Below, one piece after another: positions 9,891 through 40,721 of a stretch of DNA of 64,000 nucleotides; positions within the stretch are counted from its first letter, which is position 1, and each line of letters begins with the position of its first letter. The position numbers and the translations under genes were made by a program. The notes beneath the pieces were generated by a model. It worked only from the letters and a program-made list of their open reading frames with translations, did not search any database and was not told where the DNA came from. The stretch comes from a bacterium (GTDB taxonomy: Bacteria > Patescibacteriota > Minisyncoccia > Phycocordibacterales > JBBTRF01): assembly GCA_037130265.1 (NCBI GenBank), contig JBAXTI010000002.1:26870-90869 (forward strand), read 5' to 3'.

Positions 9891-10721
9891 CTACTTCCGC
9901 CACAGATACAGCGCGATTGGGAAGTAGTAGCTATTTTTGAATGTCTCTGCGATTTGAAAATTGAAATCACGATCAGCACCACGACCCATGAAAGACGGCC
10001 AGACTCTATTTTTAAGCTTTCTGAATTGCACTTTTTCTATGACCTCGCGCTTGAACATGGAGACACCAGCGGTGCCAGGGTAAGGTGATACGTTGCCGAA
10101 GAAGAGCTTGTTGAGCAGGCGCAGGCGTTTGTAGTGAAAGTGAGTCAATTCATTCAGGTGTGGAGAGATCTTGGCGACCAAACCTTTGGCTTTTTGTGAG
10201 AGCTTATAAATATCCGCTGGTCCAAGGATGTTACCGTCTATTTTGTATTCCGCTTTTGTGCCGACCAGATCTTCTTTGAAGCGTATGTAATCGGTAGTGA
10301 TATGTGTCGCGTTGTGTTTGATGAGAAGGTCGTGTTGAATCTCCAATCGGTTTAGTAGGGATGCATCATCGCCGTCTTGGAAGGTGATCAATTCGCCGCA
10401 CGCTTTGGCGAAGCCAAAATTGCGCGCGGCGTAACCGGCGTTGGTGTTTCGTTTCAGTATCGGATCGAGACGATCGACATCGTCGCTGGGTAAAGCATAG
10501 TAGTGGATCCGCGGATCTTCTTTTGATATTGCTTCCACAACCCGCCTCGTGTCGTCGATGCTATTGTCGTCCACCACGATCACCTCCATGTTCGTGTACG
10601 TCTGTCGAATGATTGATTCGATAGCTGTTTTGATCGTCGCACCATTGTTGTGCGCGGGAACAATGACCGAGATCAGTGGTCTTGCTGGAGTTGTCGCGGT
10701 ACTCGTCGAATCATTTTTCAT
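9891..10721 (-). CDS. family 2 glycosyltransferase
   Basis: 'ISVIVPAHNNGATIKTAIESIIRQTY..EVIVVDDNSIDDT' and 'FQDGDD' are the GT2 DXD region. Confidence 0.8.
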   Translation of the reverse strand: MKNDSTSTATTPARPLISVIVPAHNNGATIKTAIESIIRQTYTNMEVIVVDDNSIDDTRRVVEAISKEDPRIHYYALPSDDVDRLDPILKRNTNAGYAARNFGFAKACGELITFQDGDDASLLNRLEIQHDLLIKHNATHITTDYIRFKEDLVGTKAEYKIDGNILGPADIYKLSQKAKGLVAKISPHLNELTHFHYKRLRLLNKLFFGNVSPYPGTAGVSMFKREVIEKVQFRKLKNRVWPSFMGRGADRDFNFQIAETFKNSYYFPIALYLWRK

Positions 10722-12181
10722 GGGCGTAGTATATCATCAATGAATTGGCCGTAGGCGAAGGAAAAATGCTCTTTCGTGTGATGTTCTCGGACATAGTTCC
10801 AAGCAGCGCGCGCCATCTTTTCGAGCGTTTCCGGCGCTGTTTTTTCGATGGCACGCGCCTGGCGACAGATCGAATCTACTGTCGGCTTTTCTAGAATAAT
10901 CGCCGGTGCTTCTTCCAGTAAACCCGTCTGCTTGGTGACGATCGGAAACACGCCGGCGTGCATCGCCTGAATCACCGCCCCTGAAGTGCCTTCTGAGGCC
11001 GATGGGTAGATGAGGGTAGCACATGTATTTGCGATTGCGATGAATGTTGTATTTCCGACTACCATGTCCCCAGCCTTGTCTATCCTCGGTCGCGGATAGC
11101 AAGAGATGTTCGGTAATGTCAGTTCCTGAGCGTACGTCGATCGAAACTCTTTTTCGTATGTCGCAGGACCAACAATATGCAAGTGCAAATCCGGCATGGT
11201 CGCAAATGCTTCCACTACTAGATCGAGACCTTTGAGAATAGCGCCACCACCGCTGAAAAAGAGGAAGTGTTTTCGGGCTTCTGCGAAATTCTTGCTCGAG
11301 ATCTCAGAGATTTCAAATGTCTGTGTGACCGATATCGGAATATGTCGGATCGGCTTGTTGAATCGTGCGAACGTCGCGTGCACTGTTTTGTTGCCGAAGC
11401 CTTCGAGAAAATCGGCGTAAGCGGGGTTGTTTAGTCCAGCCTCGACTCTTTGTGCAGGTATAATAACGCCATGCCGCTGCTTCAGGTCGGCGAGTCGCGC
11501 GGCTTCAGCGGCATTCTGAAAGCCGCTCTCCGATGAAGTGATATGCATCACTTTTTTGCACGAAGCCTGAAGGGGTGAGGTGCCGTTGGCACTGGCGGTA
11601 CACCACCGCTCCAGATTTTGGCGGACATCGACGACGACGTTGTACGGCTTTCGAGGCATAAAAGAGGTATTCGACGCATCGATTACGTCGACTTCATACC
11701 CTCGCATCGAAAAGAGTCGCGCAATCTCGGAACATTCCCAATAGTTGGTGTGCGGGTCGGTGAACCTCTGCCAAGGAAGCAATGAAAAAGGGCCGGTGAG
11801 ATAGGATAAGAGCACTGTACCACGTCTCTGTGTCTTCGTGTGAATCGTTACCGTGCCATACAGTCGCCTGCGAACCTTGTTTCGATAAGTGATGAAGACT
11901 CGATAGTACCATTTTAGCCGTTCGAAGTGCACAGTGTCACTTTTTATCCATCGACGGATCTGCTGCCTGATTAGTGTTACTTGCGAACGAAAAATTTTCT
12001 CATAAAAAGCGTGGCCATATTCTTTGGAGAGCGTGACCCCGGTCGGCGTGCGCAGGCCATTGGCGACCACGAATGGTTGTTGAGGCCACCACGCCCATAT
12101 CTCCGCGAACACTTTTTTCGTATATTCCGGTCTACAGAAAATGATAAAAGCGACCGGTGAGGTGTTTTTATTCGGCGACAT
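10718..12181 (-). CDS. GT4-type (GT-B fold) glycosyltransferase with N-terminal extension
   Basis: The C-terminal 'YPSASEGTSGAVIQAMHAGVFPIV' is the GT4 EX7E-type motif. There is a 4-nt overlap with the downstream GT2 gene and a 14-nt overlap with the upstream asnB, suggesting an operon. Confidence 0.75.
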   Translation of the reverse strand: MSPNKNTSPVAFIIFCRPEYTKKVFAEIWAWWPQQPFVVANGLRTPTGVTLSKEYGHAFYEKIFRSQVTLIRQQIRRWIKSDTVHFERLKWYYRVFITYRNKVRRRLYGTVTIHTKTQRRGTVLLSYLTGPFSLLPWQRFTDPHTNYWECSEIARLFSMRGYEVDVIDASNTSFMPRKPYNVVVDVRQNLERWCTASANGTSPLQASCKKVMHITSSESGFQNAAEAARLADLKQRHGVIIPAQRVEAGLNNPAYADFLEGFGNKTVHATFARFNKPIRHIPISVTQTFEISEISSKNFAEARKHFLFFSGGGAILKGLDLVVEAFATMPDLHLHIVGPATYEKEFRSTYAQELTLPNISCYPRPRIDKAGDMVVGNTTFIAIANTCATLIYPSASEGTSGAVIQAMHAGVFPIVTKQTGLLEEAPAIILEKPTVDSICRQARAIEKTAPETLEKMARAAWNYVREHHTKEHFSFAYGQFIDDILRP

Positions 12182-13958
12182 GATATTTTTTGTGAGACTG
12201 CAACCAGATCTCTAGGCAGTAGAGCACCCAAATCTTGTAATTATATTCGTCACGGCCCTCATCGAAAAAGTGGTGGAGCATTTGATCTACGAACAGTTTA
12301 TTCAAGAAGGAAAATACCTCAGCCTGCGGATTGCCGAGCGTCTTTCGCACCTCTGCCTTGAAGCCGCCGGCGCGCAACCACTTTTTTACCGGCGCGCCAA
12401 AGCCCTGCTTGCGTCGATGTACGAACTCCTTCGGCATTACTTCGCCGAGGAGGTCTTTCAGAATGCGCTTATACATCACGTTGTTCGTCTTGTATTCTTC
12501 CGGCAGGTTATAGACATATTCAGCGAGTTTATGATCCAAAAAAGGCGAGCGGATCTCGAGCGAATTCATCATGCCCGCGCGGTCTGCCTTCACCAAAAGT
12601 AGGCCGGGCAGGTAGGTGGTGAGGTCGAACATATTTATTTTTTCAGCGGATGAAAGTTTCGAGTCTTTTACCTGCGAATTGAGGATGCTGATTTTGCTGG
12701 CGCACGAAGACGCAACCTTCCACAATTGCTTTCGCTCCGACGGGCTGAACACGCACACCATCTGTAAATAGCCTGACAAGGGATTCTGGAACATTTTTTC
12801 CACAAAGTTCTTTCGATACGACAAATTCTTGTGCCGAGTGTACCAGCCGTAGCCTAAAAAGAGTTCGTCTGCGCCGTCGCCGGACAGCGCCACTTTCACC
12901 TTGCTTGCCGCGAGACGTGATACTAGAAATTGCGGAAAATCCGAAGAATCAGCATGCGGCTCGTCGAAGTAGGCGATAGTCGAACGTAATTCATGGATCG
13001 CATCGTCTTTCGCTTGCAGCGGGTAGTGGTCCGTACCGATCTTCTTCGACGCCTCGAGTGCAAAGGGAAGTTCGTTGATGTAGTCCTGGTAGCCGACAGA
13101 AAAGGTTTTGATCGGCGCTTTCGAAAATGACTGCGCAATGTGGGTGACCAAGGTCGAGTCCACACCGCCCGACAGGAACGAGCCGATCTCGACGTCCGCA
13201 ATCATACGCTTTTTTACCGCTGCAGTGAGTAGGGTGCGCACCGTCTCGCGCGCCTCTTCATAAGTTGGGATTTTCTTTGTCCGTTTTTCCAGCTGCCAAT
13301 ATCGGGAAATTGAAAGTTTGCCTGAGTCCACAGTCGCCTGCGATGCTGGCGGCAAAGTATGCACATTCTTGTACACGGTCCTCCATGGTGGAATGTACAT
13401 GAGGGTTAAGTAGTCATCGAGCGCGCTTGGGTCGAGAACACCCTTGACCATGCCACTTTCGAAGATTGCCTTGATTTCCGAGGCAAAAATTAGCGCGCCG
13501 TGTTCATCGTGCGCATAATAGAGCGGTTTTTTGCCGAAGCGGTCGCGCGCCAAAAAGAGTCGCTGCTTCGCTTCGTCCCAGATCGCGAAAGCGAACATAC
13601 CTTCCAAATGGATCGGGCAGTCCTCGCCGTACTCCTGGTACGCCTTCAAAATGACCTCGGTGTCGGAGTTTGTCGAAAAAACGTGGCCTTTCGCAGTAAG
13701 TTCAGTGCGTAGTTCGCGATAGTTGTAGATCTCACCGTTGAAAGTGATCGTGAGCGGCGCTTTGTTGTCGCGCATTGGCTGATGTCCACCGGAGAGGTCA
13801 ATGATCGAGAGGCGAGTCTGGGCGAGGATGCATTGATCGAATTGCACAATCCCTTTGTCGTCCGGACCTCTCTTTGCCAAAGTGCCGAGCATCCGGGCGA
13901 GCGCCGCGTCGTCGTAGCTTTCAAGACTGATGCCGCTGATGCCGAGGATGCCGCACAT
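12168..13958 (-). CDS. asnB: asparagine synthase (glutamine-hydrolysing) family amidotransferase, full length
   Basis: The N-terminus 'MCGILGI' carries the Ntn Cys2. The motifs 'RLSIIDLSGGHQPM', 'ITFNGEIYNY' and PP-loop 'SGGVDSTLV' are present. This is the second AsnB paralog in the window. Confidence 0.9.
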   Translation of the reverse strand: MCGILGISGISLESYDDAALARMLGTLAKRGPDDKGIVQFDQCILAQTRLSIIDLSGGHQPMRDNKAPLTITFNGEIYNYRELRTELTAKGHVFSTNSDTEVILKAYQEYGEDCPIHLEGMFAFAIWDEAKQRLFLARDRFGKKPLYYAHDEHGALIFASEIKAIFESGMVKGVLDPSALDDYLTLMYIPPWRTVYKNVHTLPPASQATVDSGKLSISRYWQLEKRTKKIPTYEEARETVRTLLTAAVKKRMIADVEIGSFLSGGVDSTLVTHIAQSFSKAPIKTFSVGYQDYINELPFALEASKKIGTDHYPLQAKDDAIHELRSTIAYFDEPHADSSDFPQFLVSRLAASKVKVALSGDGADELFLGYGWYTRHKNLSYRKNFVEKMFQNPLSGYLQMVCVFSPSERKQLWKVASSCASKISILNSQVKDSKLSSAEKINMFDLTTYLPGLLLVKADRAGMMNSLEIRSPFLDHKLAEYVYNLPEEYKTNNVMYKRILKDLLGEVMPKEFVHRRKQGFGAPVKKWLRAGGFKAEVRKTLGNPQAEVFSFLNKLFVDQMLHHFFDEGRDEYNYKIWVLYCLEIWLQSHKKYHVAE

Positions 13959-13962
13959 AGGA

Positions 13963-15246
13963 TTATGGTTTTTGGGTAAATTGGAAATCGAACATTATTT
14001 TGGTCTGCGGAGGCGGAAGCTTCTTTGTGCGGTAGAATCCGTTGTTATCGAGGTTTATTACGGTCGCATCGAGGACTTTGTCAAAGACCTCGGAGTGCAT
14101 ACTGTCTGATGCCATGAAAAGGCTGAGCAAGTACTCGCCGCTCTGGAAATTGATATTTTTGACTTCCACCGAGATCTCTCCTTCGCCCGGTCGAAAATCC
14201 AGCCTCTGCTCGAGGACGTTGTTGGTGATGTTGGTGAGGTCTTCACCCTTGGTATTTTTGATATCGATGGATATCTTGGTGTCCTTGAACGTCTCATTCG
14301 TTTTATTGAAATAGGCGATGTCTAAAACGAGCGAGCCTTTTTCGTTCAAACCGCCACCTCGCAACTCGCATGAAGTGAAGCGCACCTTGCCGCTCCCTTT
14401 GCGGTCCTTGCGCGCACTGAGGTCCGCTTCGCCGAGTTCTTTTCGGGTGTGGAGGTAGAAGTCGATGACGTCCTTGGTGGAACCGACCATCTTCACCTTG
14501 CCGCCTTCTATGAGCACGCACTTGCTGCACAGTTTTTCAATCGCCGCCATGTTGTGGCTAACAAATAGAATGGTGCGACCCGTCTCCCTCACCACCTCTC
14601 CCATCTTGCCAAGACACTTCTTTTGGAAATCGGCATCACCGACGGCGAGCACTTCATCTACGAGTAAAATATCCGGCTCCATGTGTGCGGCAACAGAAAA
14701 GGCGAGGCGGACATACATGCCGCTGGAGTAATAGCGGACGGGCGTGTCGAGGAATTTTTCGACGCCAGAGAAGGCGACAATTTCGTCGAATTTTTTGGCG
14801 ATCTCATTCCGCGGCATGCCCAAGATCGCGCCATTCAAAAAGATATTTTCTCGTCCGGTCAATTCAGGATGAAAACCGGTACCCACCTCAAGCAGGGAAG
14901 CCACGCGGCCGCGCATGATGATCTCGCCTTCAGTCGGCGGAGTGATGCCTGTGAGGATTTTCAGTAAAGTGGATTTGCCCGCGCCGTTGGAGCCGATGAT
15001 GCCGATGATCTCGCCTCGCTGGACATGTAAATCGATATTTCTTAGTGCCCAAAACTCCTCTTTGGTATCCATACCGATCGCGGCTTTCGCTCTCAGCTTC
15101 ATGTAACGAAAAGGGTTTTTGAACATCGATGCGAGCACATCGCGTAACGCGACATAGCCGCCGCGATTGTGGCTGATTACATACTTCTTGCCGACGCCCT
15201 TAATTTCGATAATTGGTTGCATATTTTTTGGTGTGATTTCAATCAT
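13963..15246 (-). CDS. wzt: polysaccharide ABC exporter ATP-binding protein (Wzt/TagH-like) with C-terminal glycan-binding domain
   Basis: Walker A 'GSNGAGKST', the signature 'YSSGMYVRLAF' and Walker B 'ILLVDE' are present. An extra ~170-aa C-terminal beta-rich domain is typical of Wzt. The gene lies 9 nt downstream of the permease gene. Confidence 0.85.
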   Translation of the reverse strand: MIEITPKNMQPIIEIKGVGKKYVISHNRGGYVALRDVLASMFKNPFRYMKLRAKAAIGMDTKEEFWALRNIDLHVQRGEIIGIIGSNGAGKSTLLKILTGITPPTEGEIIMRGRVASLLEVGTGFHPELTGRENIFLNGAILGMPRNEIAKKFDEIVAFSGVEKFLDTPVRYYSSGMYVRLAFSVAAHMEPDILLVDEVLAVGDADFQKKCLGKMGEVVRETGRTILFVSHNMAAIEKLCSKCVLIEGGKVKMVGSTKDVIDFYLHTRKELGEADLSARKDRKGSGKVRFTSCELRGGGLNEKGSLVLDIAYFNKTNETFKDTKISIDIKNTKGEDLTNITNNVLEQRLDFRPGEGEISVEVKNINFQSGEYLLSLFMASDSMHSEVFDKVLDATVINLDNNGFYRTKKLPPPQTKIMFDFQFTQKP

Positions 15247-15255
15247 GGTATTTGC

Positions 15256-16092
15256 CTACAGGACATCAGCGAAATATTGTTCGACTTTTTTGAAATATAC
15301 CGTGCCGATCACTAGTAGGACGAGGCAAGCAGCAAAAGAGATCGACACGAGCTGCCAATTGATTGGCGCAGTTTCCAAAAGGGTGGCGCGCGCGGTCTGA
15401 ATGACCCCCATCATCGGATTGAGGGCGAGGAGCCAAGAGTATTTGCCAGCAATGCTCGCCGGATAGATCACCGGGGTCACGAAGAGCAGGGTTTGGATGA
15501 AGAATGGCAACACAAATCGCACATCGCGATATTTCACATTGAGCGCCGCGAGGAAAAGCCCGCCGCCGACCGCCGCCATAAAGGTGATCACTAGGAGGAG
15601 TGGGATGATTGCAATGCTGGCAAGGCCGGGAACATAGTCATAGTAGATCATCATGCCGGCGAGGATCACTGCGGCAATGGCGAAGTCTACGAGTTTGGTC
15701 GCCACTGATGAAAGCGGTAAAATTAATCGAGGAAAGTATACTTTAGTGATGATCGATTTATTGGAAATAAGAACGCTGCTGGTATCACTCAGTGCACCGG
15801 AGAAGAATTGCCAGAACAACAGGCCGACATACACGAAGATCGGGTAAGGCACGCCGTCGGAGGGAATGTTGGCAAGCTTACCGAAGAACAAGCTGAACAC
15901 CACCATGGTGATGAACGGCTGGAAGATCGCCCAGAGCGCGCCGATGCTGGTCTCTTTGTAGCGCACTTTCAGATCGCGCCAAGTGAAAAAGTAGAGCAGT
16001 TCTTTGTAGCGCCAGACCTCCTGTAAATCTTCGAAAGTTAGCACCTTTTTTGGGCGGATGAAGGTCTCGATTGTCTCAGTGTGTGTGTCCAT
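15256..16092 (-). CDS. wzm: ABC-2 type polysaccharide exporter permease (Wzm-like)
   Basis: It has six predicted TM segments. 'RDLKVRYKETSIGALWAIFQP' is the ABC-2/Wzm consensus. Confidence 0.85.
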   Translation of the reverse strand: MDTHTETIETFIRPKKVLTFEDLQEVWRYKELLYFFTWRDLKVRYKETSIGALWAIFQPFITMVVFSLFFGKLANIPSDGVPYPIFVYVGLLFWQFFSGALSDTSSVLISNKSIITKVYFPRLILPLSSVATKLVDFAIAAVILAGMMIYYDYVPGLASIAIIPLLLVITFMAAVGGGLFLAALNVKYRDVRFVLPFFIQTLLFVTPVIYPASIAGKYSWLLALNPMMGVIQTARATLLETAPINWQLVSISFAACLVLLVIGTVYFKKVEQYFADVL

Positions 16093-16122
16093 TGGTGTGT
16101 TGCGAAAAAGAATATTGAAATA

Positions 16123-16407
16123 TTACCACCTATTGAGCTTTTCCACGACCCCCTTTTTGGCGCTCAAGTAAGTGCGGGCGGCACCGCGTTCGAGTTCTGG
16201 AGAAACGAGGCGGAGTATCTCCTTGCCGAGAATACGGTATTGGCCGCCGACTTTGTTGGCACGCAACAAACCACGCTTCAGGAGGCGCTTGATTGTACTT
16301 TCGCTGATCCGCAAGATATCCTGTGTTTCGTTGGTCGTGTAGATACCAAGCGGCGCGACCCCAGTGACACCATTTTTAACGGAGACATTTTGTGACCCTT
16401 TGCTCAT
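16123..16407 (-). CDS. small helix-turn-helix DNA-binding protein (excisionase/MerR-superfamily HTH)
   Basis: 'DILRISESTIKRLLKRGLLRANKVGGQYRI' is an excisionase-family HTH. The ATG at 16407 is preferred over the ORF-track start. It is divergent from the GT2-GtrA gene. Confidence 0.5.
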   Translation of the reverse strand: MSKGSQNVSVKNGVTGVAPLGIYTTNETQDILRISESTIKRLLKRGLLRANKVGGQYRILGKEILRLVSPELERGAARTYLSAKKGVVEKLNRW

Positions 16408-16427
16408 ATATATTAATAATAACAAAA

Positions 16428-16457
16428 ATGTCAAAACATGTCAAAAGGTGTCAAGAT
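16428..16457. promoter_or_regulatory. three tandem 10-bp direct repeats (ATGTCAAAAC / ATGTCAAAAG / GTGTCAAGAT), candidate operator of the adjacent HTH protein
   Basis: Read directly. A fourth copy, ATGTCAAAA, overlaps the ATG of the GT2-GtrA gene at 16521. An inverted copy, GACATTTT, lies at 16384-16391 inside the 5' end of the HTH gene. Confidence 0.4.
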
Positions 16458-16520
16458 ACATTCAACCTCCAACTTCAATAATTGTCCCCTTCTTCCAAAT
16501 CTGCTATTCTAAAGCCTCAT

Positions 16521-17669
16521 ATGTCAAAATTGTCGATCATTATCCCTTGTTTCAACGAGGTGCGGACTATAGATGTCCTCATTGCTAGGGTGGAAGCGGC
16601 ACCCCTACCGAAAGGCTGGCAGAAGGAGCTGGTGATTGTTGATGATTACTCTACTGACGGGACTCGAGGTAAGCTTACGGCGTACGAAGGTAAACATACT
16701 GTCGTCTATCGAGAAAAGAATGGTGGCAAAGGCGCCGGTTTGAAGAGCGGCATGTTGAAGGTGTCGGGTGACTACGTCATCATTCAAGATGCCGATTTTG
16801 AATACGACCCCAACGAGTACCAGCTAATTTTGGGCGAGTTGGAGAAAAGCGGTCGAAAAAATGCAGTGGTTTTCGGCTCGCGCCTCATTGGGCAGAATAA
16901 ATTTTTTAACGCCGTCTATTTTTATGGCAATCGGACGATGACCGCGGCCTTCAATTTTCTGTTTGGTAGCCATATCACCGACATCACCACTTGCTACAAG
17001 CTCTTTCCTCGAGAAGCAGTACCTTTTCTCATGCGCTGGTCGGAGGATGGTTTTGTGTACGATGCAGTGTATCTGACCTACGAGCTTTTCCGTTTTGACA
17101 ATCACATCATTGAAGTGCCAATCACCTACACCGCGCGTACGCGAAAAGAGGGGAAGAAGGTCAATTGGAAGCACGGAGTGAAGGCATTCTACGCTATGGC
17201 TCATGTGAAGGTTGTCGAATCGATGATTGGCCGACCGATTGCCGATCTCTTTGCAAAATACGCCCAAATCGTGCGCTTTTTCATCTCCGGTGGCGCAGGG
17301 GTATTCACCAACCTGTTTTTACTCTACGTCCTCACGGAACTCGTGCATATTCACTATCTCGTATCAGCAACCGTCTCGTTCCTCGCAGCTGTTTGCGTGA
17401 ATTTTTTGATGCAAAAATTCTGGGCCTTCAAAGACGACCATGCCGACGCCGAGAAAGACGACCGCGAGCAGAAAGCCACATATATCCAGGCGATCCATTT
17501 TTTTGTAGTGCAGCTGGTGAATCTCATTGCGAATACTGGCCTGCTATATGTTGCTGTGACTCATCTCGGTTTACAGTACCTCTGGTCCGAAGCCATCATT
17601 TCCGCGTTACTTGCCTCCGTGACCTATTTTGTAAGTAAAAAATACATCTTTTCCAGCCAGAAAAATTAA
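16521..17669 (+). CDS. polyprenyl-phosphate glycosyltransferase (GT2, DPM1/ArnC/GtrB-like) fused to a C-terminal GtrA-like membrane domain
   Basis: 'LSIIIPCFNE', 'VIVDDYSTDGT' and 'IIQDADFEYDP' are GT2 signatures. The C-terminal ~130 aa have four hydrophobic helices typical of GtrA. The ORF-track start at 16482 is a TTG; the ATG at 16521 is preferred. Confidence 0.8.
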   Translation: MSKLSIIIPCFNEVRTIDVLIARVEAAPLPKGWQKELVIVDDYSTDGTRGKLTAYEGKHTVVYREKNGGKGAGLKSGMLKVSGDYVIIQDADFEYDPNEYQLILGELEKSGRKNAVVFGSRLIGQNKFFNAVYFYGNRTMTAAFNFLFGSHITDITTCYKLFPREAVPFLMRWSEDGFVYDAVYLTYELFRFDNHIIEVPITYTARTRKEGKKVNWKHGVKAFYAMAHVKVVESMIGRPIADLFAKYAQIVRFFISGGAGVFTNLFLLYVLTELVHIHYLVSATVSFLAAVCVNFLMQKFWAFKDDHADAEKDDREQKATYIQAIHFFVVQLVNLIANTGLLYVAVTHLGLQYLWSEAIISALLASVTYFVSKKYIFSSQKN

Positions 17670-19405
17670 CGCACCTTTCGAATCGTGTACAAGCTACCGA
17701 GGTGTTCGGCTTGTAAGAATTCTCTCAGAGGATGTGGCTCTTGGGGTGTCCAGCGGTAGCGGCCTTCTGAATGGAAACAGGTTTGTTTCTCGAGTTCAGT
17801 TGCGTTACAAGGTCTTTCGTCATCTTGCGTGATGAGCCAGATTGTTTTTGTTCCGAGATTCGTCTCCGGTGAAGTAAGCTTTTTCATTATAGTACCGAGC
17901 TCTTCTTGGTTGTATGCGAGGTAGGTGAGCGGCTTAAAGGCGACCTGCTCCTTCACAACGCCTGGATGCTGCATCAAAAAATCGAAACGGCCCATGCTTT
18001 GACGTTTTGGATCAAGTATGAGCATGGATCGGTCGTTCACTGGCAAGGTCATACGCAGCGCTGACCAATGTTCGACGAAGGCAATGCTTGGATCGTTGTA
18101 TTTTTTCATCAGCGTTTCGAGGAGTAGTTTTTCAGTCGACGGTTTCCAGTACAAAGAGATGGATTGAGTACCGATCACGAGGAAGAGGGTCGAGGCTAGC
18201 ACGATACCGCTCCAGCGTATGCACACACCCTGTTCGGAGATCCGTGCATCGAGTAATTCTGCCAATACCGCGATTGAAAAGGCACAGGCGGTGGTGAAAA
18301 TGACACTATACCGTGGTGCTGATCCAAAACCGATGGCTATATGGAAGATCAGATATACAAAAATCGGATGAGTGCATGCAATGAGTAGATACAGTCGGTC
18401 CTTTTTTTGGTTGGTTGCGCTATCGTCGAATTTTTTCATCAAGAAATAAATACCGATTAGCGCCAGGACAATATAGAGGAAGACTAGCGGCTGGCTCTGG
18501 ACTGCGGTGATCGCCGGCTTGTAGATGCGCGAGAGCCAGTCAATATGAACATCATCGCTTTTGTAGGAAATATTCGAAAATGAGCCACTCATCCAATTCA
18601 TGAAGATCGCGCGATAGATGAAGGAGATCTGCGTTATGCCGGCCACGATCACCCAGTACCAGTATTTTTTTACGTGCCGCCAGAGGTCGGCGAAGGTGAA
18701 GTGTTTCAGTGCGAGCGCGTAGATGCCGATGAGACCGATCGAAGCGGCGCCGACATAATTTTGGCAGAATGCGAGCACACCCATCCAGAAGAGCAATGCT
18801 ACGTATCGGTCCTTCTTCATAAATGGCTGGCCGAGGTGGCTCTGGTGTGTCTGATAATACTGTTGGGCGATAAATAGCGCGCTCGCCACCGCCATCAGCA
18901 TGAGGTGCGTTACCCAGACCTTTGCGGTGTGGAGCATCTGTAGCAGTAATACGTCAGAAAGTAGGAGTATGGCAAACAACGAGAGGGTGAGACCGAGTGT
19001 TTGCGGAATTTGCTTCTTTCGAAAGAAGAAGATACTGCCTGCCAGTGCGAAAAGAGCGGTTGCGCCGTTGATGAGGCGTAAAAAATGCAGTAATTCGCCA
19101 GTGTGAAGGGCGATATACACTTTGGTTGTCAGGATAGAGAAGCCCGACTTCAATACGATAGCAGTGATTATTGGGAGGATGGCCAAGGTGTCGATGTAAG
19201 TTTGCACGCCACCATAATAGTTGCCCGAATAGGAGAATTCCCAGCCCGGGAGGGTGCCTTTTTGGATCGCCGAGAGCGAGCTTGTGAGAAAGTAACTCTC
19301 ATCGACGATGATGTCGGGGTTATTGCCGTAGGGATTTGGTGAGAGGGTTGTTACGACAATAAACATTGCCACCAGTGCGACAAGGGTATGTTGTATATTC
19401 TTCAT
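17666..19405 (-). CDS. GT-C fold polytopic membrane glycosyltransferase (PMT/ArnT, GT39/GT83-like)
   Basis: It has more than 10 predicted TM helices in the first ~430 aa, then a soluble C-terminal domain. It is convergent with, and overlaps by 4 nt, the lipid-sugar synthase gene, which is the classic donor-synthase/GT-C pairing. The ATG at 19405 (MKNIQHT...) is preferred over 19570. Confidence 0.6.
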   Translation of the reverse strand: MKNIQHTLVALVAMFIVVTTLSPNPYGNNPDIIVDESYFLTSSLSAIQKGTLPGWEFSYSGNYYGGVQTYIDTLAILPIITAIVLKSGFSILTTKVYIALHTGELLHFLRLINGATALFALAGSIFFFRKKQIPQTLGLTLSLFAILLLSDVLLLQMLHTAKVWVTHLMLMAVASALFIAQQYYQTHQSHLGQPFMKKDRYVALLFWMGVLAFCQNYVGAASIGLIGIYALALKHFTFADLWRHVKKYWYWVIVAGITQISFIYRAIFMNWMSGSFSNISYKSDDVHIDWLSRIYKPAITAVQSQPLVFLYIVLALIGIYFLMKKFDDSATNQKKDRLYLLIACTHPIFVYLIFHIAIGFGSAPRYSVIFTTACAFSIAVLAELLDARISEQGVCIRWSGIVLASTLFLVIGTQSISLYWKPSTEKLLLETLMKKYNDPSIAFVEHWSALRMTLPVNDRSMLILDPKRQSMGRFDFLMQHPGVVKEQVAFKPLTYLAYNQEELGTIMKKLTSPETNLGTKTIWLITQDDERPCNATELEKQTCFHSEGRYRWTPQEPHPLREFLQAEHLGSLYTIRKVR

Positions 19406-19466
19406 TTCAGAATTGTAGCATGGCTGATATATGCACGGTGCCGCTCCAGTGTTGTATAATGCTTCA

Positions 19467-20102
19467 ATGCATACTGTGGCATGGAAAATCTGGCGCGGGC
19501 AGTCTCTGGCGAGGATCTTGATGAACCGAGCGTTGTCAGCATACACGATCACCGGAAGGGTGGTGGACATTGGCGGTGGACGTTCGCCGGATTATTTTGA
19601 GTATCTGAAAAAAGAAAAATTCACATCGATCGAGCTGGTAGACTTTTCTTTCTCAAGGATCGATTTCGAAAAGGATGCTCTACCATTTGCTGATGCGAGC
19701 GTCGATACAGTGCTCTGCATGAATACCCTTGAGCACGTCTACAATTATCGCTTTCTTACCGCCCAGATGTACCGCGTCCTTAAAAAAGACGGCAAGCTGA
19801 TCGGATTCGTGCCCTTTCTCATAAACTATCATCCCGACCCCCACGATTTTTTCAGGTATACCAAGGAATCCCTGACCAAGATATTTATTGAAGCTGGTTT
19901 TGCCGATATCTCGATTCGCTCTGTCGGTGGTGGGTCTTTTTTGGTGAACTACAATATGATCATGTTATCGCTGCCGAAGGTATTGCGCGTACTGATGTTC
20001 CCTTGTTATCTCATTCTCGACAGGCTTTTTTTGAAATTTAGGCCAAAGGCGGCTGAGCGCTATCCGCTCGGCTACGTCTTTGTCGCCACCACGCCAAAAT
20101 AG
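19467..20102 (+). CDS. class I SAM-dependent methyltransferase
   Basis: 'VVDIGGGRS' is motif I. 'VDTVLCMNTLEHV' and 'LKKDGKLI' are present. TATAAT at 19455-19460 lies 6 nt before ATG 19467, so the transcript may be leaderless. Confidence 0.7.
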   Translation: MHTVAWKIWRGQSLARILMNRALSAYTITGRVVDIGGGRSPDYFEYLKKEKFTSIELVDFSFSRIDFEKDALPFADASVDTVLCMNTLEHVYNYRFLTAQMYRVLKKDGKLIGFVPFLINYHPDPHDFFRYTKESLTKIFIEAGFADISIRSVGGGSFLVNYNMIMLSLPKVLRVLMFPCYLILDRLFLKFRPKAAERYPLGYVFVATTPK

Positions 20103-20135
20103 TCCTGAGCCATCAATATTCGTTATTTTTCGTGT

Positions 20136-21077
20136 ATGCTTAATGCTATGTCCTCACAATTCTACCCAAGAATTTCCATCGTTACCGTATGTTTTAATCG
20201 TGCGCAGTATATCGCCGAAACCATCGAGTCGGTGCTTTCTCAGGGTTATCCCAATTTGGAATACATCGTTATCGATGATAATTCGACCGACGGGAGCTGG
20301 GAAGTCATTCAGAAATACAAAGACAAACTCGCATACATTGAGCAAATTCCTGGAAAGCGGGATACGCCAGTGGAGTCCCTCAACTATGGCCTTTCAAAAA
20401 CAACCGGCGAGATCATGGCCACGATAAATGATAAGAATATTTACATGCCAAAAAGCCTTTTTGCTGTGGCCGGAGTATTTTCGGCTTTCCCTCAAGTAGA
20501 ATGGCTTACGGGTGTGGGTCTCATTATAGACAAGGGCGGTATTATTACTAATATTATCCCGATACGGAAGGGTTTTTATGAGCATCTTATCAATCTGCCT
20601 TGGAACATCCAGCACGAGTCCACTTTTTGGAGGCGTTCACTCTGGAAACGTACCGGTTCTCAGTACGACCCAAAGTATTCCTGGGTCTTCGACATGGGAT
20701 TATGGCGAAAATTCTTTTTTGAGGCACCACTATATCATCTCAATACGGTGGTGGGAGCCTATCGAAAGTTGCCTTCGGCTCGTACAACACTGAACAAGGA
20801 AGAATTCTATCATTACTGTGCTCTTGCACGCCAAGACATGCGCACGCAAGCAAAAAAAACAGATCTCGCATATGCAGAATTGTATCGAGCACTTAGATAT
20901 TTCAAGCCAATCTTGCGAAACATTCCCGACGCTGTATACGCAAGAATTCCTTTTTTAAAAAAAATGTCACACGATTCGATTGCCTTTCAAAACGTTACAA
21001 TTGATGACTTCGGTCCGGGCCACTTAAGGTTCCGTCGGTACAAAAGAAACCCATTCCGCACCATGTTTCCATGGTAA
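20136..21077 (+). CDS. family 2 glycosyltransferase, paralog of the C-terminal domain of the 1677-3875 gene
   Basis: 'ISIVTVCFNRAQYIAETIESVLSQ..EYIVIDDNSTDGS'. The conserved 'VEWLTG...FWRRSLWKR' block is shared with the 752-aa protein. Confidence 0.8.
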   Translation: MLNAMSSQFYPRISIVTVCFNRAQYIAETIESVLSQGYPNLEYIVIDDNSTDGSWEVIQKYKDKLAYIEQIPGKRDTPVESLNYGLSKTTGEIMATINDKNIYMPKSLFAVAGVFSAFPQVEWLTGVGLIIDKGGIITNIIPIRKGFYEHLINLPWNIQHESTFWRRSLWKRTGSQYDPKYSWVFDMGLWRKFFFEAPLYHLNTVVGAYRKLPSARTTLNKEEFYHYCALARQDMRTQAKKTDLAYAELYRALRYFKPILRNIPDAVYARIPFLKKMSHDSIAFQNVTIDDFGPGHLRFRRYKRNPFRTMFPW

Positions 21078-21089
21078 TTGCCTAGTATA

Positions 21090-22073
21090 TTAATAGAGCA
21101 TGATGGTCAGGTATTTGTTGGGGAAGTATGTTTTTTTGTTGAGATAGTAGTTCCAGTCCATTACCTCATTTTTTGCAATAACGTGTGGAATATCACCGTA
21201 GTAAGCCGCAAAATGGCTTAATGTACTGTCTGAGCCAATTACCGCATTGCACGAAGCCAGTGTAAAAAGGTCGGTGACAACATCATTCTTGCTCACGGTT
21301 ACATTGAGTTCGTAAAACAGCGAAAGGTCAACGGGTCCGTCCGAGGCGACGACGAATCCGACCTCCTGAGCACTCTTTCCGTAGTTCCGTAAATATTCTC
21401 TGAGGATTTCGACAAATCTCACCTGATCAACGAAATATTTTCCGTTCTTGAAGGTCTTGTAGTCGCTCTGACGGATGTGAACGCCTACGACGTGCGCGTA
21501 TTTTGAACGCAAAGGTTCAAGTAGGCTATCGACTTTTTTAGAAATACTCATCGTTGGGGCAATTATCCCCACTATTTTATGGTGATGCTTCCGTATACCG
21601 TCAGGATTACGAAATACACCACCATTTATCGCAGAAAAAAAAAGTATATCCTTATTCGAACCCTCCATTTTTTCAAGCAGATCGATTTTTTTAGAAGTTG
21701 CAACTGTCGGTGGTAGGTAATAGGGGTCAGTTGAACTTTCGTTCGAGTACACGATTGAATTTTTTCGAAAAAAAGTGATTGGCCTAACTACCACAGTTTT
21801 GTATCCGGTTCGCCAAAGACGGACGAACAATGATCCTTTTCTAAAATTTCTCAATCCAATTCGACGAAATGGCACGGAGAAAAAACGAAGTGTCCAGTTT
21901 TTAGAACAGAAGCCGTGAAAAGATGAAGTATGCTCAAAGAAAGAGTAATTTATACAAGGGTAATTTCGTTCAATGGCGTATGCTAAAATACTAATGTAAT
22001 TCCAGAGCTGGTTGGCTAACTCCCCGCCGTCGTGTTGGAGAATAATGACTCTCTTCAAATTCTTTTGCCTCAT
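21090..22073 (-). CDS. GT11-like alpha-1,2-fucosyltransferase family protein
   Basis: 'VGVHIRQSDY' matches HxRRGDY. 'GSDSTLSHFAAYYG' matches the GT11 C-terminal SxFxxxAAWL motif. The N-terminus 'VIILQHDGGELANQLWNY' resembles the GT11 'GGLGNQMFQY' start. The ATG at 22073 is preferred over the upstream ORF-track start at 22181. Confidence 0.65.
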   Translation of the reverse strand: MRQKNLKRVIILQHDGGELANQLWNYISILAYAIERNYPCINYSFFEHTSSFHGFCSKNWTLRFFSVPFRRIGLRNFRKGSLFVRLWRTGYKTVVVRPITFFRKNSIVYSNESSTDPYYLPPTVATSKKIDLLEKMEGSNKDILFFSAINGGVFRNPDGIRKHHHKIVGIIAPTMSISKKVDSLLEPLRSKYAHVVGVHIRQSDYKTFKNGKYFVDQVRFVEILREYLRNYGKSAQEVGFVVASDGPVDLSLFYELNVTVSKNDVVTDLFTLASCNAVIGSDSTLSHFAAYYGDIPHVIAKNEVMDWNYYLNKKTYFPNKYLTIMLY

Positions 22074-22205
22074 TTCGCTCTTCCCAACTAGCCACTTCAA
22101 AGGATTTTTAGACATATCCAAAAAGTATAAGGTGTATGGTCGGGTTTGTAAAATATTAAGCTCGGACTGAAAAGGTGGCACCTTCGGCTTCGGTGCGGTA
22201 TAGTT

Positions 22206-24488
22206 ATGCGCATGAATACTGAATATATTGCAAAATGGGTGGCGCGCATTGGCGTGTTCCTGCTCTTGGTGGTTCCGTTTGTTGTGGCCGACGGCAGTCT
22301 TTTTCCCAACTCATTCTTCCCGTTTATTACCGGCAAGGCATTCGTCTTCCGTATCCTTACGGAGATTATTTTGGCAGCGTGGCTCGTCCTCGCCTTTGTA
22401 GATGAACATTATCGCCCTCGCTCATCCTGGATCGCTCGGGCGGTTGGCATCTTCCTCCTTGTAATGTTTATTGCCGACCTCGGCAGTGCCAATCCATTTA
22501 AGAGTTTTTGGTCTAACTTCGAGCGCATGGAGGGTTTTGTTACCTTAGCGCACCTCGGCGCTCTTTTTCTTGCGGCCGGCTCGCTTTTGAAGACTGAAGC
22601 ACTGTGGAATCGTTTTTGGCAGAGCTCTTTGGTGGCGAGCGTGCTGATGGCGGCATACGGTTTCTTCCAGCTCGCTGGTTGGGCGGCGATCCATCAGGGG
22701 AGTACACGTCTTGATGCGGCACTTGGCAACTCTGCGTACCTCGCGGTGTACATGATCTTCCACGTCTTTATTGCGATTTTCCTCTTGCTTCGATACGTAA
22801 AAAAGTATGCAGGCACTACGCAGTGGTCGGCATGGTTGCCTTCTTTGTACGGCGTCGTAGCCCTGATTGATTTTATTGTTTTGTACTATACGGCAACACG
22901 AGGAGCTTTAATCGGTGTTGTCGCCGGCGTTCTTGTGATCGCTCTTGGATTGACCTTGGGGACTTTCTTTTCCTCGACATTGTCCGACAAAGAGCAGGTG
23001 TTGTTGCGAAAAATCGGTGGAAGCATTTTGATTGTTGTCCTACTCGGTATTGGCGCACTCTTTCTTGGTAAGAACAGCGACTTTGTGAAAAAGAGCGAGG
23101 TACTTTCTCGATTTAGTAATCTCGCTACTTTCAAAGTTGCGTCAATTGCTGAAGGCGAAGGGAAGTCCCGTTTCAATATCTGGTCAATGGCATTAGATGG
23201 GGTAAAAGAGCGACCGATCCTTGGTTGGGGACAGGAAAGTTTCAATTATCTCTTCTACAAGTACTACTCACCAGAGATGTACGACCAGGAGCCGTGGTTT
23301 GATCGCGCACACAACGTGTTTCTCGACTGGCTTGTGGCCGGTGGTTTTCTTGGCCTGCTTTCATACCTGTCGATTTTCGCAGCACTCATTGTATTGGTCT
23401 GGAAAAAACACATGCCATTCAGTTTGCCAGAGCGTCTCACTCTCATGGCATTGGTGGTTGCGTATTTTGTCCACAATATCTTCGTGTTCGATCAGCTCGT
23501 GAGTTATCTCTACTTCTTCCTTGTTCTCGCGTACATTCATGCGCTGTATCATCACACCCGCGAAGGGCAGGGTACGACCAAGATGGGTGAGTGGTGGAAG
23601 TCTCATCAAAAAACCCTTCAGGAAGGCGGTACCCCTATCGTTCTTGTGCTGTTTGTCGTGGTCGTGTGGTCGGTAAATTGGAGTGGTTTCGTGCAGGCGA
23701 CTGGCTTGATCGATGCTTTGACCCCACAGAAAGAAGGCTTGGCGAAAAATATCGGGATCTTCAAGGATCTGCTCGATCGACGCACTATGGGATTGTACGA
23801 GACACGCGAGCGTTTGGCGGAAGTGGCGGTGCAGATGAGTCGGGCCAATGTTGACCAGACACAAAAGACGGAGATCTTCAACCTTGCGTATGCTGAACTG
23901 AAAAAGCAGACCGAAGAGATTCCAACTGATGTTCGATATCTGTATTTCATCTCGTCGTTCCTGTCTTCGTATCAGCGATATTCCGAGGCGTTGCCGTATG
24001 CGATGAAGGCGGTGGAGTTGTCGCCAAAGAAGCAAATGCTCCTCATGAATCTCGGCAGCATTTATTTGAACATTGGCCAGGTGAAGGAAGCGTCGGCAGC
24101 ATACAAGACTGCATTTGATCTTGAGCCGAAGTATGAAGAGGCGCGATTGTCGTATGCGTTGTCTGCGGTATATGCGGGCGATGAAGTGCTGCAAAAACAG
24201 CTTCTCCAGTCGGTGTACGGAACAACCTTGATGAGCGATCAGCGATTCTTGCAGGCATATATCAATACAAAACAGCCGCAGAAAGCGATTCATGCTTTGA
24301 GTGCCTTGGTGGCGTCTACGGTTCCGGACGATATTCAACTTCGTCTGAAGTTGGCGTCGCTGTATCTGCAGATTGGAGACAAGGCGGGGGCGATAGCTCA
24401 GGTGAAAAAGGCTGGTGAGCTCCATCCGGAATTTGCTCAGGAGGTGCCAGGGTATCTGAAGGAGATTGCGAACTACAAAGGGAATTGA
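22206..24488 (+). CDS. O-antigen ligase / Wzy_C-family polytopic membrane protein with C-terminal TPR repeats (WaaL/PglL-like)
   Basis: About 12 TM helices are predicted. 'RAHNVFLDWLVAGGFLGLLSYL' matches the Wzy_C catalytic-loop region. The C-terminal ~250 aa contain TPR-like repeats (AYKTAFDLEPKYEEARLSYA...). Confidence 0.75.
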   Translation: MRMNTEYIAKWVARIGVFLLLVVPFVVADGSLFPNSFFPFITGKAFVFRILTEIILAAWLVLAFVDEHYRPRSSWIARAVGIFLLVMFIADLGSANPFKSFWSNFERMEGFVTLAHLGALFLAAGSLLKTEALWNRFWQSSLVASVLMAAYGFFQLAGWAAIHQGSTRLDAALGNSAYLAVYMIFHVFIAIFLLLRYVKKYAGTTQWSAWLPSLYGVVALIDFIVLYYTATRGALIGVVAGVLVIALGLTLGTFFSSTLSDKEQVLLRKIGGSILIVVLLGIGALFLGKNSDFVKKSEVLSRFSNLATFKVASIAEGEGKSRFNIWSMALDGVKERPILGWGQESFNYLFYKYYSPEMYDQEPWFDRAHNVFLDWLVAGGFLGLLSYLSIFAALIVLVWKKHMPFSLPERLTLMALVVAYFVHNIFVFDQLVSYLYFFLVLAYIHALYHHTREGQGTTKMGEWWKSHQKTLQEGGTPIVLVLFVVVVWSVNWSGFVQATGLIDALTPQKEGLAKNIGIFKDLLDRRTMGLYETRERLAEVAVQMSRANVDQTQKTEIFNLAYAELKKQTEEIPTDVRYLYFISSFLSSYQRYSEALPYAMKAVELSPKKQMLLMNLGSIYLNIGQVKEASAAYKTAFDLEPKYEEARLSYALSAVYAGDEVLQKQLLQSVYGTTLMSDQRFLQAYINTKQPQKAIHALSALVASTVPDDIQLRLKLASLYLQIGDKAGAIAQVKKAGELHPEFAQEVPGYLKEIANYKGN

Positions 24489-24546
24489 TAGAATAGGTAG
24501 GTGAGTGACTGACAACCTGTTGGACACCCAAAAAATGTATACGTGA

Positions 24547-24576
24547 GCCCCCGCCTTGGCGGGGTTTCGCGTTTTT
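24547..24576 (+). terminator. rho-independent terminator candidate after the ligase gene
   Basis: A GC-rich hairpin GCCCCCGCC-TTG-GCGGGG is followed by TTTCGCGTTTTT. Confidence 0.5.
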
Positions 24577-24774
24577 GGCCGGCGCGGTATGATAGTGGGA
24601 CGAGCGATACGGAGAGCTCGCCAAGGGACCTTTTGAGGTCCGTTGTGTCCGGCGATGGTGAGCGGCTGCACTCACATAATACATTACATTGGAGCCGACT
24701 CCGCTCACCATCACTCGACGCAATGCCGACCATCGACACCGCCTTTTGTTTTCCAACGCAATATATTTCCTGAC

Positions 24775-25830
24775 ATGATTGTTATCAAAAAAAATGTGCC
24801 ACTGGCCAGCCTGACAACATTCCGCGTCGGCGGGGAAGCCGCGTTTTTTTGCGAGGTGCGCACGACGGCGGAATTGGCGGAGGCGGCTGCTTTGTTTGCA
24901 AAAAATCGAGAACAATATCGAACATTTTATATTCTCGGCGAAGGTTCGAATACGCTGGTGTCTGATGGGGGGTATTCTGGCTTGGCGGTGCGCGTGTTGA
25001 TCAAGGGGGTGAAGTGGAAAGAAATCGTCGATGCCGCTGCGTGCGACAAAGTGGAGGTGGTGTCTGGTGCAGGCGAGCATTGGGATGATCTTGTCGGACT
25101 CGCGGTGGGCAAGGGGTACTATGGATTGGAAAATCTTTCCGGTATTCCTGGTACGGTCGGTGCGTCGCCTGTGCAGAATATCGGTGCATATGGTGCCGAG
25201 GTGAAAGACACCATTTCTTTTGTTGAAGCATTTCATTTTGAAACCGGCGAGACTCGCATGTTTACTCCAGAGGAGTGTTGTTTTGGATATCGAAGTAGTT
25301 TTTTCAAAAGTGTAGAAGGAAAAAAATGGGTGATCACGAAGGTTGGTTTTTTGCTCGACAAAAAAGGTAGGGTCAATATTGGCTACAAGGATCTGAAAGC
25401 GCGTTTTGCGGAGCGATATTCGAGTCAGGTGTCTCTTACTGAGGTGCGTGAAGCGGTGTTGGAGATTCGAAAGAATAAATTGCCGGATATTTCGCTACTT
25501 GGGACGGCCGGATCGTTTTTCAAGAACCCGATCATCCGTGCGGAATTGTACAAGGAGCTGCTGGAGGAATATCCAAGTATGCCAGGGTTCGCGGAGAGCG
25601 ATGGGCGAGTGAAAGTGCCGTTGGCGTGGGTGCTCGACAATGTGTGCGGGTTGAAAGGGTGGAAAGGTGACAACGGTCAAGTCGGTCTGTACGAGAAGCA
25701 GCCGCTCGCGCTGGTGAATTTTGGCGGCGCGACGGCTCAGGAAGTGTCCGACGCAGCTGAAATGGTCGCGGCGAAGGTGAAAGATATGACAGGGATTGAG
25801 GTGGAATGGGAAGTGCAAAAGCTCGGCTAG
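24775..25830 (+). CDS. murB: UDP-N-acetylenolpyruvoylglucosamine reductase
   Basis: 'LTTFRVGGEAAFF', 'ILGEGSNTLV' and 'GLENLSGIPGTVGASPVQNIGAYG' fit the FAD-binding MurB. The ATG at 24775 (MIVIKKNVPL) is preferred over the ORF-track extension. Confidence 0.85.
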   Translation: MIVIKKNVPLASLTTFRVGGEAAFFCEVRTTAELAEAAALFAKNREQYRTFYILGEGSNTLVSDGGYSGLAVRVLIKGVKWKEIVDAAACDKVEVVSGAGEHWDDLVGLAVGKGYYGLENLSGIPGTVGASPVQNIGAYGAEVKDTISFVEAFHFETGETRMFTPEECCFGYRSSFFKSVEGKKWVITKVGFLLDKKGRVNIGYKDLKARFAERYSSQVSLTEVREAVLEIRKNKLPDISLLGTAGSFFKNPIIRAELYKELLEEYPSMPGFAESDGRVKVPLAWVLDNVCGLKGWKGDNGQVGLYEKQPLALVNFGGATAQEVSDAAEMVAAKVKDMTGIEVEWEVQKLG

Positions 25831-40046: not shown

Positions 40047-40721
40047 ATGAACATTCAGGTGAAAAACAACATTGGCCAATCAGTCGCCCTTTCCTTGGTG
40101 GTCAGTCTCGTCATGTTTGCTTTTTTCCCGATTTTTGAGCCGGGATTCGCGGTCGCGGCTACGGCTGCGGATAACGTCGTTGTTACATTAAACGTCAGTG
40201 CCGGTATTTCGATCACTTCACCAACTGACGCCACGATGAGTAATACGATCGGCGTGTCGGTAAACAAAGCGATTGCCACCACCACGTGGAACGTGAAGAC
40301 TAATAACGTCGCCGGCTACACACTTGCCTTGAAATCTGCGACTTCTTCTACCCCGGCAATGAAGCAGGATACTGACAACACAAAAGTGATTGCGGACAAT
40401 ACCACAGGTGCCGTCACTCCAGCCTTGTGGGGTACGATGGGGGCGAGTACCGCTGAGTTTGGTTACAGTGGATACGGCACCGATGTGTCGTCGGGGACGT
40501 ACGGATCGGATACTAGCTGTGGTGCGACAAGCACTCCCTCGACGGCACTCAAGTACACTTCTTTGAGAGTCACCGACCGGACGCTTTCTTCTCGTTCGTC
40601 GACCACCACCCAGGCAGGGGTCGATACCGTCGTGTGCTACGCCGTGGAGCAGGGTAGTAACTTCTACATCGCCTCTGGAACCTACACAGCCACCCTTACG
40701 GCCACTGCTACAACTCAGTAA
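40047..40721 (+). CDS. secreted WxL-domain-like surface protein (paralog A)
   Basis: It has a Sec signal peptide with AxA site. 'TWNVKTNNVAGYTLALKSA' resembles the proximal WxL block (aGWxLtVsas) with W replaced by Y. The C-terminus 'SGTYTATLTATATTQ' resembles the distal 'GTYxgtLTWTLxD' block with W replaced by A. It is paralogous to the ORF at 41746-42501. Confidence 0.5.
   Translation: MNIQVKNNIGQSVALSLVVSLVMFAFFPIFEPGFAVAATAADNVVVTLNVSAGISITSPTDATMSNTIGVSVNKAIATTTWNVKTNNVAGYTLALKSATSSTPAMKQDTDNTKVIADNTTGAVTPALWGTMGASTAEFGYSGYGTDVSSGTYGSDTSCGATSTPSTALKYTSLRVTDRTLSSRSSTTTQAGVDTVVCYAVEQGSNFYIASGTYTATLTATATTQ

Follow-up and report, generated by a model that had tools for sequence, protein, structure and literature searches.

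The characterised Wzy_C ligases of monoderm bacteria are the S-layer O-oligosaccharyltransferases (O-OTases) WsaB and WsfB, which act on proteins (PMC2943079). WsfB as well as PglL was reported to carry a C-terminal tetratricopeptide repeat (TPR) motif, and a TPR protein, WsaA, is encoded next to WsaB (PMC2943079). The S-layer glycan clusters of Geobacillus stearothermophilus and Paenibacillus alvei also hold an AsnB homologue (WsfA in P. alvei; PMC2943079). In WaaL of E. coli the residues R215, R288 and H338 are functionally important and correspond to R224, R298 and H349 of PglL (PMC3643930), and the His requirement holds across Wzy_C O-OTases (PMC9829042). A gene for a Wzy_C protein with a TPR domain is found in a 64-kb stretch of a Patescibacteria genome (GCA_037130265.1, contig JBAXTI010000002.1, positions 26,870–90,869; the whole stretch is referred to below as the window). 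This gene (22206..24488, + strand, ATG start; open reading frame (ORF) list, Pfam and database matches) encodes a protein of 760 aa, called the ligase hereafter.

The public gene call begins two codons downstream, at 22212, and yields 758 aa with a 100% identical protein. The 100%-identical public protein, which belongs to a metagenome-assembled genome (MAG), carries the annotation 'O-antigen ligase family protein'. Pfam places Wzy_C (PF04932) at aa 218–388 (22857..23369, + strand) (E=3.1e-21; 76.2 bits, cutoff 31.7), and above-cutoff TPR families (TPR_8, TPR_2, TPR_14, TPR_19, TPR_16) at aa ~530–745. The best curated NCBIfam match is IctB (TIGR00947; aa 51–417, E=1.8e-14), but its 53.6 bits are far under the cutoff of 366.4, and identity with IctB was dropped. 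Further NCBIfam matches are TPR proteins, all of them sub-threshold. A sequence search of the PDB with the entire ligase returned TPR proteins as the sole matches; the membrane domain alone, and then a 16-sequence profile of it, gave no match in the PDB. Because these sequence searches provided no such match, the link to WaaL is taken from structure and from profile-to-sequence alignment. The ligase is a member of the Wzy_C/O-antigen-ligase superfamily, every superfamily feature tested being present.

The catalytic residues of the superfamily are recognised by aligning (hhalign) E. coli K-12 WaaL with the 16-sequence profile of the ligase membrane domain. WaaL R215, R288 and catalytic H338 (PglL R224, R298 and H349) are paired with R232 (codon 22899..22901, + strand), R322 (23169..23171, +) and H369 (23310..23312, +) of the ligase, with E=0.06, a value that is weak alone. 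The pairing is trusted despite this value because the Pfam and structural matches agree with it and the residues do not vary: R232, R322 and H369 are invariant in 76 homologs. H369 is part of the motif H-N-x9-G-x-x-G. Identity to the query is highest in the outer loop (60%), and amounts to 46% in the transmembrane (TM) core, 35% in the TPR domain and 6% in the cytoplasmic linker. The conserved Wzy_C catalytic residues, whose absence would have spoken against the preliminary description of this gene, are thus present, and the comparison supports a ligase of the WaaL/PglL superfamily rather than a degenerate relic.

The AlphaFold2 (AF2) model of the ligase (mean pLDDT 92.4, pTM 0.89) has a layout that matches the hydropathy, namely 13 long hydrophobic helices followed by ~14 short antiparallel helices at aa 512–755, which form ~7 TPR-like pairs. 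These pairs and the Wzy_C match of 76.2 bits bear out the earlier view of a Wzy_C membrane protein with a long C-terminal TPR domain. TM helices 1–9 occupy aa 5–287 (22218..23066, + strand; hydropathy, AF2 DSSP and invariant columns). Their short outward loops bear the invariant residues W102-S-N-x-E-R-M-E-G110, Q164/R168/D170/G174/N175 and T229-x-x-R232. Between TM9 and TM10 lies the large extracytoplasmic catalytic loop (aa 288–370; 23067..23315, +; AF2 and conservation), which is made of short helices and bears R302, R322, P337-x-x-G340-W-G342, E362 and F365-D-R-x-H369-N. TM10–TM12 (aa 371–449; 23316..23552, +; hydropathy and AF2) complete a WaaL-like core of 12 TM helices, with invariant N424 and D429 at the outer turn of TM11/12. 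A variable basic cytoplasmic linker with 4 K/R (aa 450–467; 23553..23606, +; hydropathy and conservation) leads to an extra helix, TM13 (aa 468–~496; 23607..23720, +; hydropathy and AF2), whose helix runs on unbroken to aa 505. The remaining part, aa 506–760 (23721..24485, +; Pfam, AF2 and Foldseek), is the predicted extracytoplasmic TPR domain of ~7 helix pairs.

If the N-terminus is placed inside, ~19 K/R fall in the predicted inner loops (hydropathy) and ~4 in the short outer loops, and the invariant polar residues are all found on the predicted outer side. Since the additional TM13 follows a 12-TM WaaL arrangement, the TPR domain is predicted to face outward, as the catalytic loop does. 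Hydropathy and AF2 therefore argue against a cytoplasmic TPR domain, the arrangement at odds with the preliminary description. The structure search (Foldseek with the ligase model) finds WaaL as the closest solved structure to the membrane fold (7tpg_B, E=5.9e-5, TMt 0.65). The TPR domain is structurally nearest to OGT-type and consensus TPRs, OGT and SPY being among the neighbours; additional neighbours are LpoP, YbgF and PilF. Invariant polar residues of the TPR domain are E532, E535, D575, R577, K609, Q610 and Y650.

The database contains more than 4,000 relatives of the ligase, hundreds of which cover 97–100% of its length at 39–45% identity; the gene is therefore considered real. Full-length relatives share an architecture of ~725–745 aa, and those with names come from Parcubacteria/Paceibacteria lineages (Lloyd-, Yonath-, Campbell- and Taylorbacteria). 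When each GTDB species is represented by a single genome, at least 594 genomes encode a relative. The best 80 of these species matches are all from Patescibacteria MAGs and have 40–49% identity over aa 1–505. The ligase is an ordinary representative of a large, conserved, annotated but uncharacterised Patescibacteria family, and literature searches found no paper devoted to the Patescibacteria Wzy_C-TPR family.

The gene neighbourhood was compared in 84 loci (80 species loci and 4 homolog loci of ~42% identity). In all four homolog loci murB and then secA follow the ligase gene, and the upstream genes vary between Wzm/Wzt, Wzx-type flippases and two ~1,200-aa surface proteins. Among the 58 loci with at least 5 kb of downstream sequence, 51 have secA no more than 6 kb away and on the strand of the ligase gene, and in 36 of those 51 murB lies between the ligase gene and secA. 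On the upstream side, the 57 loci with at least 8 kb of sequence (tblastn) contain Wzm (11 loci), a Wzx-type flippase (22) or neither (24), and never both. By Pfam classification of the gene immediately upstream (67 loci), 15 loci have Polysacc_synt (Wzx-type) in this place, 10 a fused ABC_membrane+ABC_tran exporter and 5 Wzm. The nearest upstream neighbour is thus an exporter in 30 of the 67 loci, with three mechanistic classes represented; the remaining nearest neighbours are mostly sugar-nucleotide enzymes, methyltransferases and glycosyltransferases (GTs). The ligase gene sits where a conserved housekeeping block meets a hypervariable glycan locus. Glycan genes and export route differ from locus to locus but the ligase remains conserved, a pattern to be expected of a glycan-promiscuous ligase of the last step, such as WaaL or PglL, and not of a Wzy polymerase.

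The pairing with a Wzm/Wzt exporter, assumed earlier for this gene, stands in part: both genes are present in the glycan locus of the window, but relatives pair with a Wzx-type flippase or a fused ABC exporter. The fused exporters (for example L008 8086–9870, L016 7700–9481, L072 8120–9919) have ~595 aa and a PglK/MsbA-like architecture, and are encoded mostly on the strand of the ligase gene. They may be lipid-linked-oligosaccharide flippases and thus provide a third export route feeding the ligase.

Beyond the observed family, fold, catalytic residues, predicted topology and exporter linkage, a mechanism is proposed. Twelve TM helices form a WaaL-type core, with the predicted active site on the outside of the cytoplasmic membrane. 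R232 and R322 would hold the pyrophosphate of an undecaprenyl-pyrophosphate (Und-PP)-linked glycan, and H369 would act as the catalytic base. TM13 is predicted to bring the TPR arm of 250 aa to the outer side, the same as that of the active site. The ligase could accept any finished glycan exported by the adjacent variable locus; in the window this would be a polymer exported via Wzm/Wzt and probably methyl-capped. The glycan would then be moved en bloc onto a surface acceptor that the TPR arm helps to present. Both the donor chemistry and the en bloc transfer are inferred by homology. The likeliest acceptor class would be Ser/Thr/Tyr of Sec-exported surface proteins gripped by the TPR arm.

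WaaL (E. coli K-12; Cupriavidus metallidurans, PDB 7TPG/7TPJ) has in common with the ligase the 12-TM core, the big loop between TM9 and TM10 and the R/R/H triad. The two differ in sequence (~14–19% identity), in the TM13 and 250-aa outward TPR domain added in the ligase and in gene position, which for the ligase is outside an LPS core locus. Patescibacteria are regarded as lacking lipopolysaccharide (LPS), so that a lipid A-core acceptor is unavailable, and a scan of the 64-kb window alone, not of the whole genome, found no waa or lpx genes. WaaL sensu stricto was dropped as an identity in view of the missing LPS context in the window and the added TM13 and TPR domain.

Among the described systems the ligase would work most like WsfB/WsaB or PglL. 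WsfB of P. alvei and WsaB with WsaA of G. stearothermophilus represent monoderm Wzy_C proteins with a C-terminal or neighbouring TPR, similar to the ligase (PMC2943079). The locus in the window resembles the Geobacillus and Paenibacillus S-layer glycan clusters in holding Wzm/Wzt, GTs (GT1, GT2 and GT11-like), a methyltransferase and AsnB-like genes (PMC2943079). The two sides are likened by description. Unlike WsfB/WsaB, the ligase has no recognised S-layer structural gene beside it, and its family is conserved class-wide and keeps a fixed chromosomal place beside murB-secA.

With PglL, PglS, TfpO and TfpM the ligase shares the Wzy_C domain, the essential His and relaxed glycan specificity, the latter being predicted for the ligase. 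Residues Q178, N180, G316, G318, H400, E404 and P406 are PglL-specific (PMC3643930, PMC12800693). The spacing of P337-x-x-G340-x-G342 in the ligase equals that of PglL-specific P313/G316/G318 when compared by eye with the published numbering only (PMC3643930). Invariant D429 lies 60 residues past H369, as against 55 residues between the His of PglL and its E404, again by published numbering. A pilin gene adjoins the PglL gene in 21 of 31 cases (PMC3643930), whereas the ligase is found without an adjacent pilin and without a detected PglL_A or Wzy_C_2 domain; its TPR domain is also much larger than that of PglL. Since a Pfam search for PglL_A, the defining motif, was negative, the ligase is not demonstrably a PglL-family protein.

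A glycosyltransferase module joined to a TPR superhelix that grips the protein substrate is also known in OGT/SPY, in TMTC1–4 and in P. aeruginosa TfpW, which resemble the ligase by analogy only. OGT and SPY belong to GT-B, TMTC and TfpW to GT-C of the PMT/ArnT type, and these catalytic folds are unrelated to that of the ligase.

A protein acceptor is favoured because of the TPR precedent in WsfB, PglL and WsaB, the AsnB likeness, the OGT/SPY-like TPR, the P-x-x-G-x-G spacing and the Lamin Tail Domain (LTD) proteins found as neighbours in some loci. For the ligase being an O-OTase with a protein acceptor, like WsfB/WsaB or PglL, the chance is judged to be about even; we infer the protein nature of the acceptor from these resemblances only.

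Several results weigh against this assignment. In the ligase, PglL_A (PF15864) and Wzy_C_2 give no Pfam match even at E<=1, and the alignment to WaaL has the modest E value given above. No prepilin motif occurs anywhere in the window, which has no pilin gene either, and no S-layer gene is recognised there beside the ligase. The conserved neighbours are murB and secA and include no candidate glycoprotein. A giant surface protein of 4,810 aa and its Laminin_G_3 neighbours are encoded in the window, but 20 kb away from the ligase. Co-occurrence with giant surface proteins, suggested in the preliminary description, is not general among relatives, where an upstream ORF of at least 800 aa is found in 5 of 57 loci. 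The invariant polar residues of the TPR domain are more in keeping with a conserved ligand or partner than with fast-evolving surface adhesins.

In three loci, L003 (615–9712) and L019, both from Lloydbacteria, and L075, labelled Parcubacteria, the glycan locus is replaced by two tandem proteins of ~1,210–1,245 aa. The ligase-proximal one (~1,240 aa) contains the LTD, is encoded on the strand of the ligase gene and ends 236–483 nt upstream of it. A large LTD surface protein is the immediate upstream gene in only these 3 of the 67 loci.

The same en bloc chemistry with Und-PP-glycan could be directed to a sugar hydroxyl instead of a protein. The acceptor would then be a glycolipid or lipoglycan anchor, in a WaaL-like reaction without LPS, or peptidoglycan/lipid II, in an LCP-independent attachment of wall polysaccharide, and the TPR domain would dock to the wall-synthesis or export machinery. 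WaaL, the nearest solved structure, uses a sugar acceptor, and the failure to detect the PglL_A motif agrees with this explanation. The conserved partners murB (directly downstream in 36 of the 58 loci) and secA (51 of the 58) make a cell-wall or glycolipid acceptor possible, although the synteny may be mere gene-order conservation, a hairpin and a gap of ~290 nt preceding murB in the window. The polar residues of the TPR domain are invariant across the class, as they would be with a conserved partner of non-protein or housekeeping nature. LpoP and YbgF are among the structural neighbours of the TPR domain, and TPRs also serve peptidoglycan-synthase regulators and polysaccharide-export scaffolds; on the other side, fusions of glycosyltransferases with TPRs most often mark protein substrates, as in OGT and SPY.

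IctB of cyanobacteria, the best, although sub-threshold, NCBIfam match, is likewise a lineage-wide Wzy_C protein without a known protein substrate. Its profile matches the whole membrane domain of the ligase, but the 425 profile positions align only to aa 51–417 and leave out the TPR domain. IctB also belongs to a diderm host with LPS. Proteins are the acceptors of the characterised monoderm ligases, WsaB and WsfB (PMC2943079), and this precedent opposes a sugar acceptor. Transfer to a sugar hydroxyl is considered possible, with a chance that falls short of even.

To our knowledge, no monoderm wall or glycolipid ligase of the WaaL type has been described. It is doubtful, although by no means negligible, that the ligase is a general surface-glycan ligase of Paceibacteria for a conserved non-protein acceptor (peptidoglycan/lipid II or a glycolipid anchor of scavenged lipid). 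Such an enzyme would represent a WaaL-type, LCP-independent route to the monoderm envelope, with the TPR domain docked to the wall-synthesis/Sec machinery encoded next door by murB and secA.

A Wzy-type repeat-unit polymerase, which would extend the chain instead of ligating it, is very improbable. The Pfam Wzy_C family takes in some polymerases, many polymerases match it, and a Wzx-type flippase is encoded upstream in 22 of the 57 loci. The sequence of Wzy polymerases, however, tracks the structure of the repeat unit and diverges strongly, and these enzymes are unneeded in ABC-transporter pathways. The ligase gene occurs in Wzm/Wzt loci (the window and 11 others), where chains are completed in the cytoplasm, and adjoins fused ABC exporters in 10 of the 67 loci. 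Among the best 80 species matches 40–49% identity is kept though the glycan gene sets are unrelated, and both the ligase-type R/R/H triad and H-N-x9-G-x-x-G are invariant. The high conservation of the gene and its occurrence together with ABC exporters led to the polymerase explanation being dropped.

A non-catalytic or non-glycan membrane protein (a scaffold, or a transporter as once proposed for IctB, the sole curated NCBIfam match, named 'putative bicarbonate transporter') is highly unlikely, given the IctB score of 53.6 bits against a cutoff of 366, the invariant catalytic triad, the outer loop as the most conserved part and the tight linkage to glycan exporters and glycosyltransferases.

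Most Patescibacteria (CPR) are episymbionts that have not been cultured, and next to nothing is known of their surface chemistry. The new elements here are the class-wide conservation of the ligase, its fixed place by murB-secA at the edge of a hypervariable locus and its coupling to three types of exporter. A conserved ligase that accepts glycans from three export routes would provide a handle on the surface decoration of these bacteria, on which host attachment and phage recognition probably depend. If the ligase is truly an O-OTase, its predicted relaxed glycan specificity and outward TPR arm could also make it useful for bioconjugation.

The variable glycan locus of the window (9891..22181, both strands; Pfam and gene calls) lies directly upstream of the ligase gene. 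It begins with genes for GT2 (9891–10721, − strand) and GT1 (10718–12181, −). The gene for an AsnB-like amidotransferase (12168–13958, −) overlaps the GT1 gene and adjoins that of Wzt with its Wzt_C domain (13963–15246, −), which is followed by Wzm (15256–16092, −). A small gene (16123–16407, −) encodes HTH_17. Then come GT2 fused to a GtrA/DPMS-type TM domain (16482–17669, +), a polytopic membrane protein of ~580–630 aa with no Pfam match (17666–19570, −), a methyltransferase (19431–20102, +), GT2 (20136–21077, +) and a GT11-like protein (21090–22181, −).

The polytopic protein comprises 8 or more hydrophobic segments and ends in a soluble C-terminal part of ~170 aa, and its gene is convergent with that of the GT2-GtrA fusion. 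This pair looks like a polyprenyl-phosphate-sugar synthase with an unrecognised extracytoplasmic transferase of the GT-C type; if so, the locus would contain a second, separate glycosylation step outside the membrane. The HTH_17 (excisionase-type) gene beside Wzm/Wzt recurs in the glycan locus of a relative with ~42% identity (L004 8585–8833, −) and could either regulate the locus or be a relic of mobility. The glycan region contains two AsnB-like glutamine amidotransferases (53–1684, +; 12168–13958, −), which, by analogy, suggests an amidated sugar. Among the glycosyltransferase genes, the segment 4755–8790 (+) encodes a PfkB-like kinase fragment, a Zn-dependent dehydrogenase and a thiamine-dependent E1 alpha/beta pair (E1_dh; Transket_pyr + Transketolase_C). 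These enzymes may make an unusual branched or keto sugar and not serve central metabolism.

Downstream of the ligase gene, murB (24775–25830, +) and secA (25853–28453, +) are the conserved neighbours. The intergenic region 24489–24774 between the ligase gene and murB has ~290 nt (165–290 nt in relatives); neither this gap nor the remainder of the window contains an Rfam family or a tRNA. A GC-rich hairpin with a U-run after the ligase stop codon (24541..24576, +; z = -1.2, not statistically distinctive) is possibly an intrinsic terminator, though weakly supported as such. An operon of the ligase gene with murB is judged unlikely because of the ~290-nt gap and the hairpin with its U-run. Directly 3' of secA lies a gene for a two-domain PLD-type (cardiolipin-synthase-like) protein (28460–29545, +); among the 84 related loci, tblastn detects it downstream in a single one.

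Farther downstream, four consecutive ORFs (40047–43951, +) encode proteins with signal-peptide-like N-termini and low-complexity stretches rich in Ser/Thr/Ala/Gly, with no Pfam match; these are plausible surface proteins and candidate targets of O-glycosylation. They are followed by the giant secreted protein of 4,810 aa (44034–58466, +), which consists of Ser and Thr to 27% and contains Peptidase_S74 (intramolecular chaperone) domains and a C-terminal Bact_surface_Ig-like domain. After it come two proteins of ~695 aa (58472–60565 and 60612–62687, +) with three lectin-like Laminin_G_3 domains each.

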